Source of the DNA: Candidatus Aenigmatarchaeota archaeon
GTDB taxonomy: Archaea > Aenigmatarchaeota > Aenigmatarchaeia > Aenigmatarchaeales > JACQIB01
Reading direction: 5' to 3'
Assembly (NCBI GenBank): GCA_046760225.1
Contig: JBHIDR010000002.1
Span: 1 to 52,881, forward strand
Length of the DNA: 52,881 nucleotides
The notes under the pieces were generated by a model, which saw nothing but the letters and a program-made list of their open reading frames with translations, ran no database searches and was not told where the DNA came from. Positions 21,139 to 37,200 of the stretch are shown in pieces. Positions within the stretch are counted from its first letter, which is position 1. Each line of letters begins with the position of its first letter. A program made the position numbers and the translations under genes.

Positions 21139-21358
21139 GGGGCAGTAATCCTTTTGGAGGACTGCATGCTCAGCCCGGGAGAGCGCTACATCCGATTGGA
21201 GGCGAACCTGAAGACTCGGATGAGCGGCAAGGTAGACACCGGCACTTTTGTGTTGATGGCTCATTTGTCGCGTGCGTGCATCAGGTACCTCTGGTGTGCC
21301 GCGAATTCAAATGGGAGTTAGGTCTCCTATCTTCCTGAAGCTCACGCCTGCCCCACCA
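21139..21358 (+). tRNA. tRNA-Phe(GAA) with six introns: 21148-21167 (9/10), 21190-21206 (30/31), 21214-21229 (37/38), 21236-21264 (43/44), 21275-21305 (53/54), 21312-21341 (59/60)
   Basis: removing the six hairpin introns gives a fully paired 77-nt cloverleaf GGGGCAG TA GCTC AGCCCGGGA GAGC G CTACC CTGAAGA GGTAG TTGTC GCGTG TTCAAAT CACGC CTGCCCC A CCA; TTTAAA box about 45 nt upstream. Confidence 0.92.
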
Positions 21359-22789: not shown

Positions 22790-23281
22790 ATGGAAGCTGA
22801 AGTCAAGGAAGACAAGGTTATTGTAGAGGAAGGGGAAGAGCTGTATGAGCAGGGATGGTATGGCAATCTTGAGGGAAAGAAGCTGATACTTGACCTGGTC
22901 GAGGCAGTGCTGCTCATGGAAAGGGCAAAGATAGAGCTCAAGGACATGGACTTCAAGGAGTTCTTCCACTACTGCTCCAAGATTGACCCCAGATTCACAG
23001 CCAGATATGCTGTTTACAGGGACCTCAGGGATAGGGGGCTTCCTGTGAGAACAGGTTTCAAGGGAAGTGATTTCAGGGTTTATGAAAGGGGGGCAAAGCC
23101 GAAAAAGCAAGGGAAGGTCAAGTGGATAGTTTTTGCAGAAGCAGAGGACTATCCCTGTGAAATGGAAAAGCTCGGAAAGGCAATAAAGCTGGGAAAGAAC
23201 ATAAGGGCTGTTGCACTCTGGGCTATTGTGGATAATGATTTAGATGTGACATATTATATAATTAATTCGATTTCACCGTGA
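22790..23281 (+). CDS. endA: tRNA splicing endonuclease, probable structural (beta) subunit
   Basis: LDLVEAVLL, YAVYRDLRDRG, SDFRVY, AIVD..VTYY; no catalytic His. Confidence 0.85.
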   Translation: MEAEVKEDKVIVEEGEELYEQGWYGNLEGKKLILDLVEAVLLMERAKIELKDMDFKEFFHYCSKIDPRFTARYAVYRDLRDRGLPVRTGFKGSDFRVYERGAKPKKQGKVKWIVFAEAEDYPCEMEKLGKAIKLGKNIRAVALWAIVDNDLDVTYYIINSISP

Positions 23282-27850: not shown

Positions 27851-28202
27851 ATGAAGGAGATGCGCCTTTGGCAAGCATGAGAAGAAGATTCTTGTAGAAG
27901 CATCTCTATCAAAGCGCGAGGAACAGATTCTTTCTGACATCGTATTTCTGCAGGGAATGACATATTCCCGCGCTGTAAGGGAGCTTTCTGGAAAATATCC
28001 TGAGAGCACTGTGAAGTACATACTGCGAAAGCTCAGGAAAGGGGGCCTCATTGTCTGTGGCAGCTCCAGGTGTCATGGTGTTCCTATCAAGGTTACTGAA
28101 AGGGGTCATCGTCTAGTGGCAGGACAGCAGCCTCCAGAGCTGCAGACGGGGGTTCAAATCCCTCTGACCCCACCAAAAAGGAGGTGCTTATATGAGGGGT
28201 GA
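27851..28202 (+). CDS. winged-HTH protein with a disrupted 5' end whose 3' part overlaps tRNA-Trp
   Basis: open frame from about 27855: ..LSKREEQIL..TYSRAVRELSGKYPESTVKYILRKLRKGGLI..; ATG 27851 is out of frame with it. Confidence 0.55.
28102..28175 (+). tRNA. tRNA-Trp(CCA), intron-less, CCA encoded
   Basis: GGGGTCA/TGACCCC acceptor stem; GCAGC-CT CCA GA-GCTGC anticodon arm; GGTTCAAATCC T-arm. Confidence 0.93.
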
Positions 28203-34224: not shown

Positions 34225-34288
34225 ACGTTATTTATCATGCTAAAACTATTTATGTATGAACCTGATTTATTGTGCTTTTAAATCTTAA

Positions 34289-34469
34289 TGGTGCCCCGGA
34301 TGGGATTTGAACCCACGACTTCCTGCTTTCATCGCCGAAGCTCAAGTCTTCTAAGCTTGGCTTAGAAGGTTCACCAGGTTTGACCTTCAGGCACTCTATC
34401 CATTCCAGAGTCTTTGGTTTCCCCAAAGACTTAGCTGAGTTTTCCCGAGCAAAGATTGCTTACCGGGGC
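34289..34469 (-). tRNA. tRNA-Arg(UCU) with four introns: 34442-34461 (8/9), 34403-34432 (D-loop, about 17/17a), 34370-34387 (30/31), 34328-34362 (37/38)
   Basis: spliced 78-nt cloverleaf GCCCCGG TA ACTC AGCTTGGATA GAGT G CCTGC CTTCTAA GCAGG AAGTC GTGGG TTCAAAT CCCAT CCGGGGC A CCA; each intron is a hairpin bounded by a 4-bp helix and 3-nt bulges. Confidence 0.92.
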
Positions 34470-34542
34470 ATCAGCTCCGAGGCATAATGATTTATTTTAT
34501 AGCATAGTTTATAAATTAATACTCAAAATAGGTGTTATGGTT

Positions 34543-37200
34543 ATGGACTTTGCAGCAATAGACAAGAAATGGCAGGAGAAGTGGGAAAAGGACAAGGCTT
34601 TTGAGAGCAAGATTTCCAAGAAAAAGAAGTTCTATGTACTCGAGATGTTCCCATACCCTTCAGGCACTGCGCATGTCGGCCATATAAGGAACTATTCAAT
34701 GGGTGATTGTTTTGCGCGCTTCAAGAGAATGCAGGGCTTCAATATCATATATCCCATGGGATGGGACTCCTTTGGGTTGCCCGCTGAGAACGCTGCAATA
34801 AAGAGGGGCATTGACCCTGACAAATGGACTGATGAAAACATAGCAAGCTTCAAGAAACTGTTCAAAAGGCTTGGGTTCAGCTATGACTGGACAAGGGAGT
34901 TTGCAACCTCACATCAGGATTATTACAAGTGGAACCAGTGGATATTCCTAAAGTTCCTGGAAAAGGGGCTTGCCTACAAGGAAAAGGCAAGTGTTAACTG
35001 GTGTCCTGGGTGCAATACTGTGCTAGCAAATGAACAGGTAATAAAGGGCAAGTGCTGGAGGTGCGATAGCGAGGTCGAGATAAAGACATTGAACCAGTGG
35101 TTCTTCAAGATTACAGATTATGCGCAGGAGCTGCTTGATGACATTGCAAAACTTGAGGGCTGGCCCAACAGGGTAAGGATAATGCAGGATAACTGGATAG
35201 GAAGATCAGAGGGCACAATGGTCAACTTCAAGCTCAAGGACACAGGAGAGGACATTCCTATTTTCACAACAAGGCCTGACACACTGTTCGGTGTCACCTT
35301 CATGGTATTTGCTCCTGAACACCCGAAAGTAATGGAGCTTGTCAAGGGAACAAAATATGAAAAAGATGTGAAGGAATTTGTCAGCAGGGTTGTTATAGAA
35401 GAGAGATTCATGAGGGCAGCAGAAGAAAAGGAAAAGGAAGGCATGTTCATAGGCAAGCATGCAATCAATCCCCTGACAGGGGAGGATATTCCGATTTACA
35501 TTGCGAACTTTGTGCTCATGGAATATGGCACCGGAATGATAATGGCTGTGCCTGCACATGACCAGAGGGACTTTGAATTTGCAAAAAAATATGACATACC
35601 TATAAAGGTTGTGATTACGCCCAAAGGCAAAGAGCTGAAAGCTGAAGAAATGAAACAAGCATATGTTGATGAGGGAGTTCTCATAAACTCTGGAAAATTC
35701 AATGGCCTTGGAAACATTGAGTCAATGAAGAAAATATCAGAATATATTGAGAAGGAAGGAATTGGAAAAGGCACTGTTGAATACAAGCTAAGGGACTGGT
35801 TGATATCCAGGCAAAGGTACTGGGGCACACCAATACCTGTTGTTTATTGTGACAAGTGCGGAACAGTTCCTGTACCAGAGAAAGAACTGCCCATATTGCT
35901 CCCGCCATCAGAAAAGGTTGATTTCAAGGCAAAGGGAAACCCGCTTGCAAGTGCCAAGGAGTTTATCAATACAAAATGCCCGAAGTGCAAGGGCAGTGCG
36001 AAAAGGGAAACAGACACAATGGACACCTTTGTTGATTCCTCTTGGTACTTCCTGAGATATTGCTCGCCAAAGTCTGAGAAATTGCCCTTTGAGAAAAAAG
36101 AAGTTTCTTACTGGATGCCTGTTGACCAGTACATAGGTGGGATAGAACATGCAACAGGCCATCTTATTTACTTCAGGTTCTTTACAAAGGCGCTTCGTGA
36201 TCTTGGCCTGCACACCATAGATGAGCCTGCAAAAAAACTTTTGTGCCAAGGAATGATAACGCTTGGTGGAAAGGCGATGAGCAAGTCAAGGGGGAACGTG
36301 GTTGACCCATTACCCATAGCAGAAAAGTATGGTGCAGATGTGCTCAGGGCATTCATACTCTTTGCTTCATCACCTGAAAAGGACCTTGAATGGAGTGATG
36401 AAGGTATTGAAGGTATTACAAGGTTTTTGAAGAAATTCTTTTCCCTTGCAACTGAGGAAAGGAAACATGTTTCATCAGCAAAAGACAGCAATGTGATCAG
36501 CAAGATGCACAAGACAATAAAGGAAGTCACGATGCTCATTGAAGAATTAATGGTAAACAGGGCACTCGTAAAGATAACAGAATTTATCAATTATATCATC
36601 AGATATAATGTGTACATAAGCGACAAGACATTTGATGAAGCCATAAGGAACGCCTGCCTTCTGCTTGCACCGTTTGCCCCGCATATATGCGAGGAAATAT
36701 GGAGCAAGAAAGGCAAGGGGTTTGTTTCACATGCCAAATGGCCAGAACCAAAAACAGAATACATCAAGCCGAAGTATGAAGCTGAGGAGAATCTGATTTC
36801 CCAGGCAGCAGCTGACATAGAGCACATTAAGAAGATATCTGGTATAAGGAAGCCGCACAAGATAACATTTGTTGTTTCGTATCCTTGGAAATATGAGGTC
36901 TACAATCTTGTCTTGGAAGGAAAAGAGCTGAAGGAAATAATAAAGATGAAGGAATATGAAAAATATGTAAAAGAAGTTGCTGTGTATGTGCAGAAGCTTA
37001 TGAGGAGGAAGCCGCTTGATGAGCTCTTCCTTACAGCAGGCAGCGAACTAAGGACACTCAACGAGGCAAAGGAATTCATTGAAGGCGAGTTTGACTGTGA
37101 GGTGGAGGTTGCTGAAGCAGAGAAAGTGGAAACGGTGCCAAGGCTTGATGTCAAGGCAAAATCAGCAGAACCTGGAAAGCCTGGAATCTTGGTAGACTAG
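34543..37200 (+). CDS. leuS: leucyl-tRNA synthetase (bacterial-type core)
   Basis: LEMFPYPSG..HVGH, GWDSFGLPAENAA, WLISRQRYWG, DTMDTF, AMSKS; alternative start 34537. Confidence 0.96.
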   Translation: MDFAAIDKKWQEKWEKDKAFESKISKKKKFYVLEMFPYPSGTAHVGHIRNYSMGDCFARFKRMQGFNIIYPMGWDSFGLPAENAAIKRGIDPDKWTDENIASFKKLFKRLGFSYDWTREFATSHQDYYKWNQWIFLKFLEKGLAYKEKASVNWCPGCNTVLANEQVIKGKCWRCDSEVEIKTLNQWFFKITDYAQELLDDIAKLEGWPNRVRIMQDNWIGRSEGTMVNFKLKDTGEDIPIFTTRPDTLFGVTFMVFAPEHPKVMELVKGTKYEKDVKEFVSRVVIEERFMRAAEEKEKEGMFIGKHAINPLTGEDIPIYIANFVLMEYGTGMIMAVPAHDQRDFEFAKKYDIPIKVVITPKGKELKAEEMKQAYVDEGVLINSGKFNGLGNIESMKKISEYIEKEGIGKGTVEYKLRDWLISRQRYWGTPIPVVYCDKCGTVPVPEKELPILLPPSEKVDFKAKGNPLASAKEFINTKCPKCKGSAKRETDTMDTFVDSSWYFLRYCSPKSEKLPFEKKEVSYWMPVDQYIGGIEHATGHLIYFRFFTKALRDLGLHTIDEPAKKLLCQGMITLGGKAMSKSRGNVVDPLPIAEKYGADVLRAFILFASSPEKDLEWSDEGIEGITRFLKKFFSLATEERKHVSSAKDSNVISKMHKTIKEVTMLIEELMVNRALVKITEFINYIIRYNVYISDKTFDEAIRNACLLLAPFAPHICEEIWSKKGKGFVSHAKWPEPKTEYIKPKYEAEENLISQAAADIEHIKKISGIRKPHKITFVVSYPWKYEVYNLVLEGKELKEIIKMKEYEKYVKEVAVYVQKLMRRKPLDELFLTAGSELRTLNEAKEFIEGEFDCEVEVAEAEKVETVPRLDVKAKSAEPGKPGILVD

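Follow-up and report, generated by a model that had tools for sequence, protein, structure and literature searches.

The window, a 52,881-nt stretch of DNA from a Candidatus Aenigmatarchaeota genome, carries on its minus strand a tRNA-Arg(UCU) gene in which five exons are separated by four introns, each bounded by a bulge-helix-bulge (BHB) motif and one of them lying between tRNA positions 8 and 9 (Table 1). The best explanation of this locus is a functional tRNA-Arg(UCU) gene, the sole one in the assembled genome, whose four BHB introns would be spliced by proteins. From the sequence evidence laid out below, we put the probability of a real, spliced four-intron tRNA-Arg(UCU) gene at about 0.87.

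The tRNA-Arg(UCU) gene and its exon-intron map

The preliminary description of this DNA had put its claim at the risk of a poor tRNA score for the spliced sequence. Instead, the spliced product, a 75-nt cloverleaf followed by an encoded CCA (78 nt in total), is called as tRNA-Arg(tct) by ARAGORN and scores 34.5 of a maximum of 35 in a custom cloverleaf score, so that the anticodon UCU and the standard 78-nt tRNA-Arg product given in that description stand. The anticodon sits within a loop of 7 nt that contains U33, and at minimum energy the spliced RNA folds as a plain cloverleaf (−31.0 kcal/mol). A20, an identity element of tRNA-Arg, is present. ARAGORN calls no gene on the unspliced 181 nt or after the removal of any single intron, and in the whole unspliced window both ARAGORN and the Rfam tRNA model at its gathering threshold report only a tRNA-Trp (28102-28175), with nothing at the tRNA-Arg locus. 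At a loose threshold, the Rfam model gives a partial match on exon 5 alone (34292-34341, 19 bits, E = 0.107). The precursor has the acceptor 5' strand at one end, and the T arm, the acceptor 3' strand, the discriminator A and the CCA at the other; all five exons are colinear within the 181 nt, and the gene is neither split nor permuted.

Table 1. Features of the tRNA-Arg(UCU) locus and the EndA genes in the window, with positions counted from the first letter of the window
Feature	Position	Strand	Character or basis
tRNA-Arg(UCU) gene, five exons and four introns	34289..34469	-	181 nt including encoded CCA
Exon 1, tRNA positions 1-8, 8 nt	34462..34469	-	BHB cut and homology-only alignment to G001 ortholog
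Intron 1, 20 nt, site 8/9	34442..34461	-	CCCG/CGGG, bulges GTA and AAA, 5-bp inner helix, without outer helix
Exon 2, positions 9-17, 9 nt	34433..34441	-	BHB set and alignment to G001 ortholog
Intron 2, 30 nt, D-loop 17/17a	34403..34432	-	TCAG/CTGG, bulges CTA and AAT, 9-bp inner helix
Exon 3, positions 17a-30, 15 nt	34388..34402	-	BHB set and alignment to G001 ortholog
Intron 3, 18 nt, site 30/31	34370..34387	-	TGCC/GGTG (two G-U pairs), bulges TGA and AAC, 4-bp inner helix
Exon 4, positions 31-37, 7 nt, with anticodon UCU	34363..34369	-	ARAGORN, BHB set and G001 alignment
Intron 4, 35 nt, canonical site 37/38	34328..34362	-	CTTC/GATG (U-U mismatch), bulges TAA and AAA, inner helix of 3 or more bp
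Exon 5, positions 38-73 and encoded CCA, 39 nt	34289..34327	-	ARAGORN and G001 alignment
Putative TATA-like promoter box, A/T-rich	34491..34501	-	starts 32 nt upstream of tRNA position 1
9-nt antisense element in intron 4	34348..34356	-	perfect complement to positions 32-37 and the first three intron bases
UUGA, D'-like box	34342..34345	-	two bases past the antisense element; the fifth base upstream of the box is the partner of U34
GAUGA, C'-like box	34329..34333	-	overlaps the 3' strand of the intron 4 BHB central helix
EndA catalytic alpha subunit, 176 residues	23825..24355	+	PF02778 and PF01974
EndA structural beta subunit, 163 residues, paralog without catalytic His	22790..23281	+	PF02778 and PF01974; alignment to 1A79 and 5X89

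The four introns of 20, 30, 18 and 35 nt (precursor positions 9-28, 38-67, 83-100 and 108-142) had been proposed from the letters alone, and the sequence check, ARAGORN, a ranking of alternative intron sets and a homology-only alignment now agree on them. For the ranking, we used a custom BHB scanner that looks for a 4-bp helix, two 3-nt bulges, each cut behind its second base, and an inner helix; the BHB and cloverleaf scores are our own heuristics and not those of tRNAscan-SE. Among the BHB candidates in the 181 nt, three of the four introns rank in the top five, with intron 2 in first place, and the four-intron set ranks first among 5256 non-overlapping BHB-bounded sets. In a control of 100 sequences in which the interior was dinucleotide-shuffled and the acceptor strands and T arm were retained, the best scores had a mean of 27.4 (sd 1.5), and even the highest, 31.5, stayed below 33. 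We also tried 34483 as the 5' start and rejected it, with a cloverleaf score of just 26.5, and other borders of the D-loop intron were dropped after comparison with the orthologs.

For the homology-only alignment, we took as reference the mature tRNA-Arg(UCU) of a relative of the same genus (G001), whose gene has one 37-nt intron at 37/38, and used a spliced aligner without knowledge of BHBs. The resulting blocks (34469-34462, 34441-34433, 34402-34390, 34371-34364 and 34328-34292) are the same five exons, within the 1-2 nt left open by repeated letters. At introns 1 and 4, where homology alone leaves an ambiguity of 1-2 nt (an A at both ends), the introns were placed at 8/9 and 37/38 because the BHB geometry fixes the cuts.

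In this geometry, the central helix is paired at all four positions in introns 1-3, with G-U allowed, and at three of four in intron 4, and every bulge is 3 nt long. The central helix sequences had been given correctly in the preliminary description, but their pairing needs correction: TCAG/CTGG contains one G-U pair and TGCC/GGTG two, and CTTC/GATG has a U-U mismatch. Its reading of every 3' bulge as AA followed by one further base is borne out (AAA, AAT, AAC and AAA), with each predicted cut after the second A. The intron that it placed in the D-loop is indeed there, and we refine the exact site to between U17 and U17a.

Upstream of the gene, the putative promoter box has counterparts in similar TTTATAA-type boxes located about 30-35 nt upstream of the orthologs in G010 and G002. 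A leucyl-tRNA synthetase gene (34456-37200, plus strand) is divergent from the tRNA-Arg gene, and its listed TTG start at 34456 overlaps exon 1 of the tRNA. This start is suspect because the Pfam match begins only at residue 38, and the true start is probably downstream of it.

Orthologs and the interrupted tRNA genes of the host genome

Eleven relatives were found to have an ortholog of tRNA-Arg(UCU), which shares the anticodon loop and has one to three introns in each. Eight of these genes have a single intron, at 37/38 (G001, G008, G012, G015, G031, G036, G039 and G059), and the G010 gene has two, at 30/31 (15 nt) and 37/38 (36 nt). The orthologs of G002 and G006, which belong to the family of the window, have three introns, located in the D-loop after G19 (20 or 23 nt), at 30/31 (13 nt) and at 37/38 (22 nt); those of G002 were read by eye, and those of G006 come from automatic alignment alone, with a misplaced 3' end. 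The 37/38 intron is present in all 11 orthologs and the 8/9 intron in none of them, and the D-loop intron of G002 and G006 lies two to three bases away from the site of intron 2. Of the six other genomes in the family, G001, G002 and G006 gave a hit when searched for the ortholog by pattern, and G003, G004 and G005 (83-89% complete) gave none. Compared with the orthologs, paired changes occur in all four stems of the tRNA, at 10-25 (A-U versus G-C), 28-42, 29-41, 50-64 and 7-66.

The gene is covered, identical letter for letter, by contigs from four hydrothermal vent metagenome runs that belong to one study; two of the four runs may be the source of the genome, and X3 and X4 are not flagged as such. 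Runs X1 and X3 also yielded a contig, about 90% alike, that matches 34285-34336 and 34433-34484 and has 46 letters in between, compared with 96 in the window. This contig retains the 3' exon, exon 2, intron 1, exon 1 and the upstream DNA. The 96 letters of the window consist of 26 nt of intron 4 followed by exon 4, intron 3, exon 3 and intron 2, and would come to 48 after subtraction of introns 2 and 3. Because the contig has 46 letters where 48 would be expected without these two introns, it appears to represent a co-occurring relative that has the 8/9 and 37/38 introns and lacks introns 2 and 3.

The host genome is a metagenome-assembled genome of the Aenigmatarchaeota (DPANN), with 0.85 Mb in 83 contigs, 83% completeness and 44% G+C. 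No second copy of tRNA-Arg(UCU) was found in this assembled genome, and a BLAST search of the four Arg introns against it gave no further copy of any of them. In open reading frames of at least 300 codons, AGA accounts for 28% and AGG for 59% of the Arg codons (together 87%). Since AGA and AGG dominate the Arg codons and no second tRNA-Arg(UCU) was found, the gene should be needed.

The Rfam tRNA model finds 18 tRNA genes in the host genome and 4 to 55 per genome across 40 relatives (G001-G040), with 41-42 in G001 versus 6 in G009, a genome of another family that is 98% complete. Hidden interrupted tRNA genes are probably widespread in the order, and very unevenly distributed. The intron census that had been suggested for this genome was run with the G001 tRNAs as references together with the BHB scanner, and its approximate result is 36 candidate loci, 21 of which have at least one intron, with a single intron in ten genes, two introns in seven, three in two, four in one (tRNA-Arg) and six in one. 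Eight further genes have none, and seven long loci (152-240 nt) were left without an assigned intron number. Introns in the T-loop are common in this genome. The 3' CCA is encoded in most tRNA genes of both the host genome and G001.

That more than one locus is highly interrupted, as the preliminary description held, can be seen within the same window, where a tRNA-Phe(GAA) gene of 217 nt (21139-21355, plus strand) is located about 13 kb from the tRNA-Arg gene. Spliced alignment with the tRNA-Phe of G001 gives seven exon blocks separated by six gaps of 20, 17, 16, 29, 31 and 30 nt, including a 20-nt intron at 9/10, and the spliced tRNA-Phe has a cloverleaf score of 35/35. A strict BHB is present at the exact borders of four of the six gaps, the 16-nt and 29-nt gaps being the two that lack it, and a predictor based on BHBs alone gave no intron map for tRNA-Phe or for the seven long loci. 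The 8/9 site recurs in the host genome, because an identical 23-nt intron is located there in both a tRNA-Ile(GAT) gene (C12:3911-4008, minus strand) and a 193-nt gene (C4:24638-24830, minus strand). The former has this one intron and the latter at least four gaps; the two genes share the same acceptor stem, and the 193-nt gene is probably a tRNA-Ile(UAU).

Splicing enzymes, predicted processing and a guide-like element

The window encodes two EndA subunits. The best solved relative of the alpha subunit is N. equitans 3IEY_A (E = 6.4e-35 over 143 residues), and the Tyr and His of the catalytic triad are kept. Judged from the encoded proteins, the alpha and beta genes have the layout of an (alpha-beta)2 heterotetramer, which is one of two EndA types reported to cut non-canonical introns in the accessible part of PMC5829648. 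At the position of the canonical catalytic Lys, the alpha subunit has an Ala (motif HNIRANML); in the fusion protein of M. kandleri this Lys is K334, and it was placed by counting along the alignment with the residues that the legend in PMC5829648 names. All 80 of the 80 closest EndA loci, mostly from Candidatus Aenigmatarchaeota, have Ala, Ser or Thr at the Lys position, and all 80 keep the Tyr and His. Because Ala replaces the canonical Lys, the chemistry of the alpha subunit is not the textbook one. The genome also contains a gene for RtcB on contig C35 (E = 1.4e-149) and adjacent fibrillarin and Nop5 genes on contig C30. By gene content, the host possesses both an EndA of the type predicted to act on non-canonical introns and a ligase predicted to join the exons.

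The rtcB gene contains two BHB-like inserts, at 1544-1573 (30 nt) and 1646-1677 (32 nt) of C35, both with the 3' bulge AAA. The second insert shifts the frame, and removal of both gives one open reading frame of 481 residues from the first Met. The peptides flanking the inserts, once joined, read like what we take to be conserved RtcB motifs. As far as the gene sequence tells, the mRNA of the ligase would itself need BHB splicing.

In the tRNA-Arg precursor, the four BHBs span positions 3-26, 32-65, 77-98 and 102-140. These spans do not overlap, and therefore all four can coexist as a row of local hairpins, with computed energies of −9.4, −15.3, −3.8 and −7.0 kcal/mol for BHB1 to BHB4; the local minimum-energy fold of BHB1 is at −9.5 kcal/mol. 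The BHBs borrow exon bases of the later stems, namely 3-6 of the acceptor stem, 12-13 of the D-stem and 25-28 of the D and anticodon stems. A 31-nt nascent prefix folds into a hairpin with the central helix of BHB1, and a 70-nt prefix folds exactly into BHB2. In the minimum-energy fold of the full-length precursor (−67.7 kcal/mol), the acceptor stem is closed by its seven G-C pairs; a fold with all four BHBs reaches only −41.3 kcal/mol. When introns 1-3 are removed, the minimum-energy fold is a cloverleaf with the canonical hBHBh' at 37/38.

From these folds, we infer splicing and its order. The transcript would fold as four independent hairpins, in each of which the end of the upstream exon pairs with the 3' part of the following intron. 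The (alpha-beta)2 EndA, encoded 10 kb away, would cleave each bulge behind its second base, and the exons would be joined by RtcB into the 75-nt cloverleaf, with the CCA already encoded. The 8/9, D-loop and 30/31 introns would most likely be cut on the nascent or still unfolded transcript because their BHBs use bases of the acceptor, D or anticodon stem, and the canonical 37/38 intron would be removed last or independently. After cleavage, the 8-nt exon 1 would probably re-pair with the 3' acceptor strand, in an all-G-C stem, for ligation. The preliminary description had argued that splicing at 8/9 must precede cloverleaf folding. The conflict that it pointed to is real, in that the BHB excludes the acceptor pairs 3-70 to 6-67; the strict order that it drew from this we would word as a likely one.

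Intron 4 contains, in this order, the antisense element, UUGA, a short hairpin and GAUGA (Table 1). An antisense of at least 8 nt that ends 1-3 nt before a D or D' box and places its target at the fifth pair is the arrangement of a C/D guide, and this is what is found here. The layout with U34 at the fifth base is present in nine of the 12 genomes compared, with an antisense of 8-9 nt and the spacing counted by hand, and is absent from G002, G006 and G059. The YUGA box of the nine genomes is CUGA in five and UUGA in four, and GAUGA follows in eight of the nine. Across the orthologs, the antisense and the first intron bases change together. When the intron was shuffled 200000 times, an 8-nt complement with YTGA coming 1-3 nt behind it arose in just 11 cases. 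No terminal C (RUGAUGA) and D (CUGA) boxes that would make up a kink-turn were found in intron 4, which has a single internal YUGA...GAUGA pair and accordingly looks like half of a box C/D RNA rather than a full one.

Before the 37/38 intron is removed, the antisense and the D'- and C'-like boxes would direct box C/D 2'-O-methylation of the wobble base U34; we give about even odds to intron 4 being a methylation guide for U34. The guide fold and the splice fold would be mutually exclusive, because GAUG is also a strand of the BHB helix, and the order would accordingly be methylation first and splicing second. The guide-like element suggests a reason for the retention of the 37/38 intron.

These observations can be combined into a single account, which we offer tentatively and at odds clearly below even. 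In it, the three-intron ceiling would be broken, by four introns in tRNA-Arg and six in tRNA-Phe; a chain of hairpins would be processed before the cloverleaf forms, and the 8-nt exon would pass from its intron to the 3' strand of the acceptor stem. The 37/38 intron, as the ancestral one, would serve as a C'/D' guide in cis that methylates U34 and then refolds into a splice site. The account would further involve an EndA without the Lys and a ligase mRNA with two BHB-like inserts.

Several points speak against the best explanation: the full-length minimum-energy fold is not the all-BHB fold, the central helix has two G-U pairs in intron 3 and a mismatch in intron 4, EndA alpha lacks the Lys, and there is a single box pair with UUGA instead of CUGA. 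The gene may be real with a different intron map, in which the 35-nt stretch at 37/38 would be a pair of introns, abutting or one nested in the other, or in which the borders of the D-loop intron would lie elsewhere (precursor positions 39-66 or 42-72). Alternative D-loop cuts do reach cloverleaf scores of 33.5-34.5, whereas the cut at 38-67 gives exactly the D-loop of G002 and G008 and has the best BHB score. Exon 4 and the first intron bases can also pair perfectly (9 bp) with precursor positions 114-122 in competition with the BHB; however, a cut after this helix would yield no tRNA, and the helix is conserved together with the box motifs and is better read as a guide element. We consider a different map unlikely.

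Marginally less probable than that is a decaying or silent copy, with a less interrupted tRNA-Arg(UCU) located in the unassembled 17% of the genome. The completeness of 83% leaves room for such a gene, and G001, of the same genus, has a one-intron version. A decaying copy fits poorly, however, with the near-perfect cloverleaf, the retention of all conserved bases, the four intact BHBs and the compensatory changes that keep every stem paired. The TATA-like box, the encoded CCA, the lack of a second copy in the assembled genome and the interruption of most other tRNA genes of the genome argue in the same direction. An assembly chimera or a chance resemblance, which might be feared in a metagenome-assembled genome of 83 contigs, is very improbable: the contigs of four runs, two of them not flagged as possible sources, cover the gene without a differing letter, the shuffle control gave 0 of 100, and the exons are common to the orthologs. 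The reading that we retain is the functional four-intron gene.

Relation to known disrupted tRNA genes

tRNA genes with multiple introns are known from the Thermoproteales (Pyrobaculum, Thermofilum, Caldivirga), which have a heterotetrameric (alpha-beta)2 EndA, and such genes are missed by standard tRNA finders according to the accessible parts of PMC4033280, PMC4090602 and PMC8450103. The maximum given there is three introns (PMC4033280, a 2014 review, and PMC8450103, each available in part). With four introns in tRNA-Arg and six in the neighbouring tRNA-Phe, the genes described here lie outside the range of that class, and the number of protein-spliced introns per tRNA is raised above the three stated in the available text of reviews and of the tRNAscan-SE 2.0 paper. 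An intron in the acceptor region, at 3/4, is known in the Thermoproteales (PMC4090602, partial text), and alternative folds and ordered intron removal are known in principle from the portions available of PMC8450103 and PMC3728597. Unlike the Thermoproteales, the present host belongs to the DPANN, for which the accessible part of PMC5829648 predicted undetected disrupted tRNA genes; its EndA is nearest to that of N. equitans rather than to a crenarchaeal one and lacks the canonical Lys. In contrast to the transposed intron families of the Thermoproteales, the Arg introns here have no copies elsewhere in the genome.

The host resembles N. equitans in its EndA alpha, for which 3IEY is the best match, and in having a separate beta subunit without the His. 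In comparison with M. jannaschii and M. kandleri, the EndA of the host and that of N. equitans both have an insertion that lies between the Tyr and the His of the catalytic site. The tRNA genes of N. equitans include split (trans-spliced) ones, whereas the exons here are colinear in one gene, and the RK motif containing its catalytic Lys reads RA here.

The guide-like element has a possible analog in Haloferax, where the intron of pre-tRNA-Trp is a methylation guide that targets C34 and U39 (PMC11408192, available in part). Both are 37/38 introns in which a D'-type box comes after a sequence antisense to the anticodon loop, and position 34 would lie at the fifth paired base in each. The present case differs in the tRNA, which is tRNA-Arg(UCU), in the predicted target U34, and in having one box pair, with no terminal C/D boxes found.

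Heavily interrupted tRNA genes are also known outside these groups. In the Asgard lineages Atabeyarchaeia and Freyarchaeia, a different superphylum from that of the host, introns were reported in 92-95% of tRNA genes, more than half of them with multiple introns and many at non-canonical sites, and 228 tRNA introns were counted in three genomes in 2024 (PMC11291895, partial text). Genes with at least four introns may already be among this Asgard set. The nuclear tRNA genes of Cyanidioschyzon merolae have BHB-type introns in the D arm, the anticodon arm and the T arm, with up to three in one gene, and their ordered removal was shown by RT-PCR (PMC3728597, in its accessible part); it differs from the present host in being a eukaryote, with three introns at most and some permuted genes. 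A literature search, with most subscription journals outside its scope, returned no tRNA gene with four or more introns and no tRNA introns of Aenigmarchaeota or Aenigmatarchaeota.

Interruption helps to explain the low tRNA counts given by standard tools, 18 in this genome and 4-7 in some relatives, and such counts lead to false claims of missing tRNAs in DPANN genomes. The same gene with one, two, three or four introns in close relatives provides a natural series for the gain and loss of BHB introns, and the 8-nt exon together with the mutually exclusive folds poses a concrete question that can be tested, namely in which order folding, cutting and joining take place. Compared with the systems above, the mechanism is a known one; what is new is the degree of interruption, the lineage, the 8/9 site with its 8-nt exon and, possibly, the guide.
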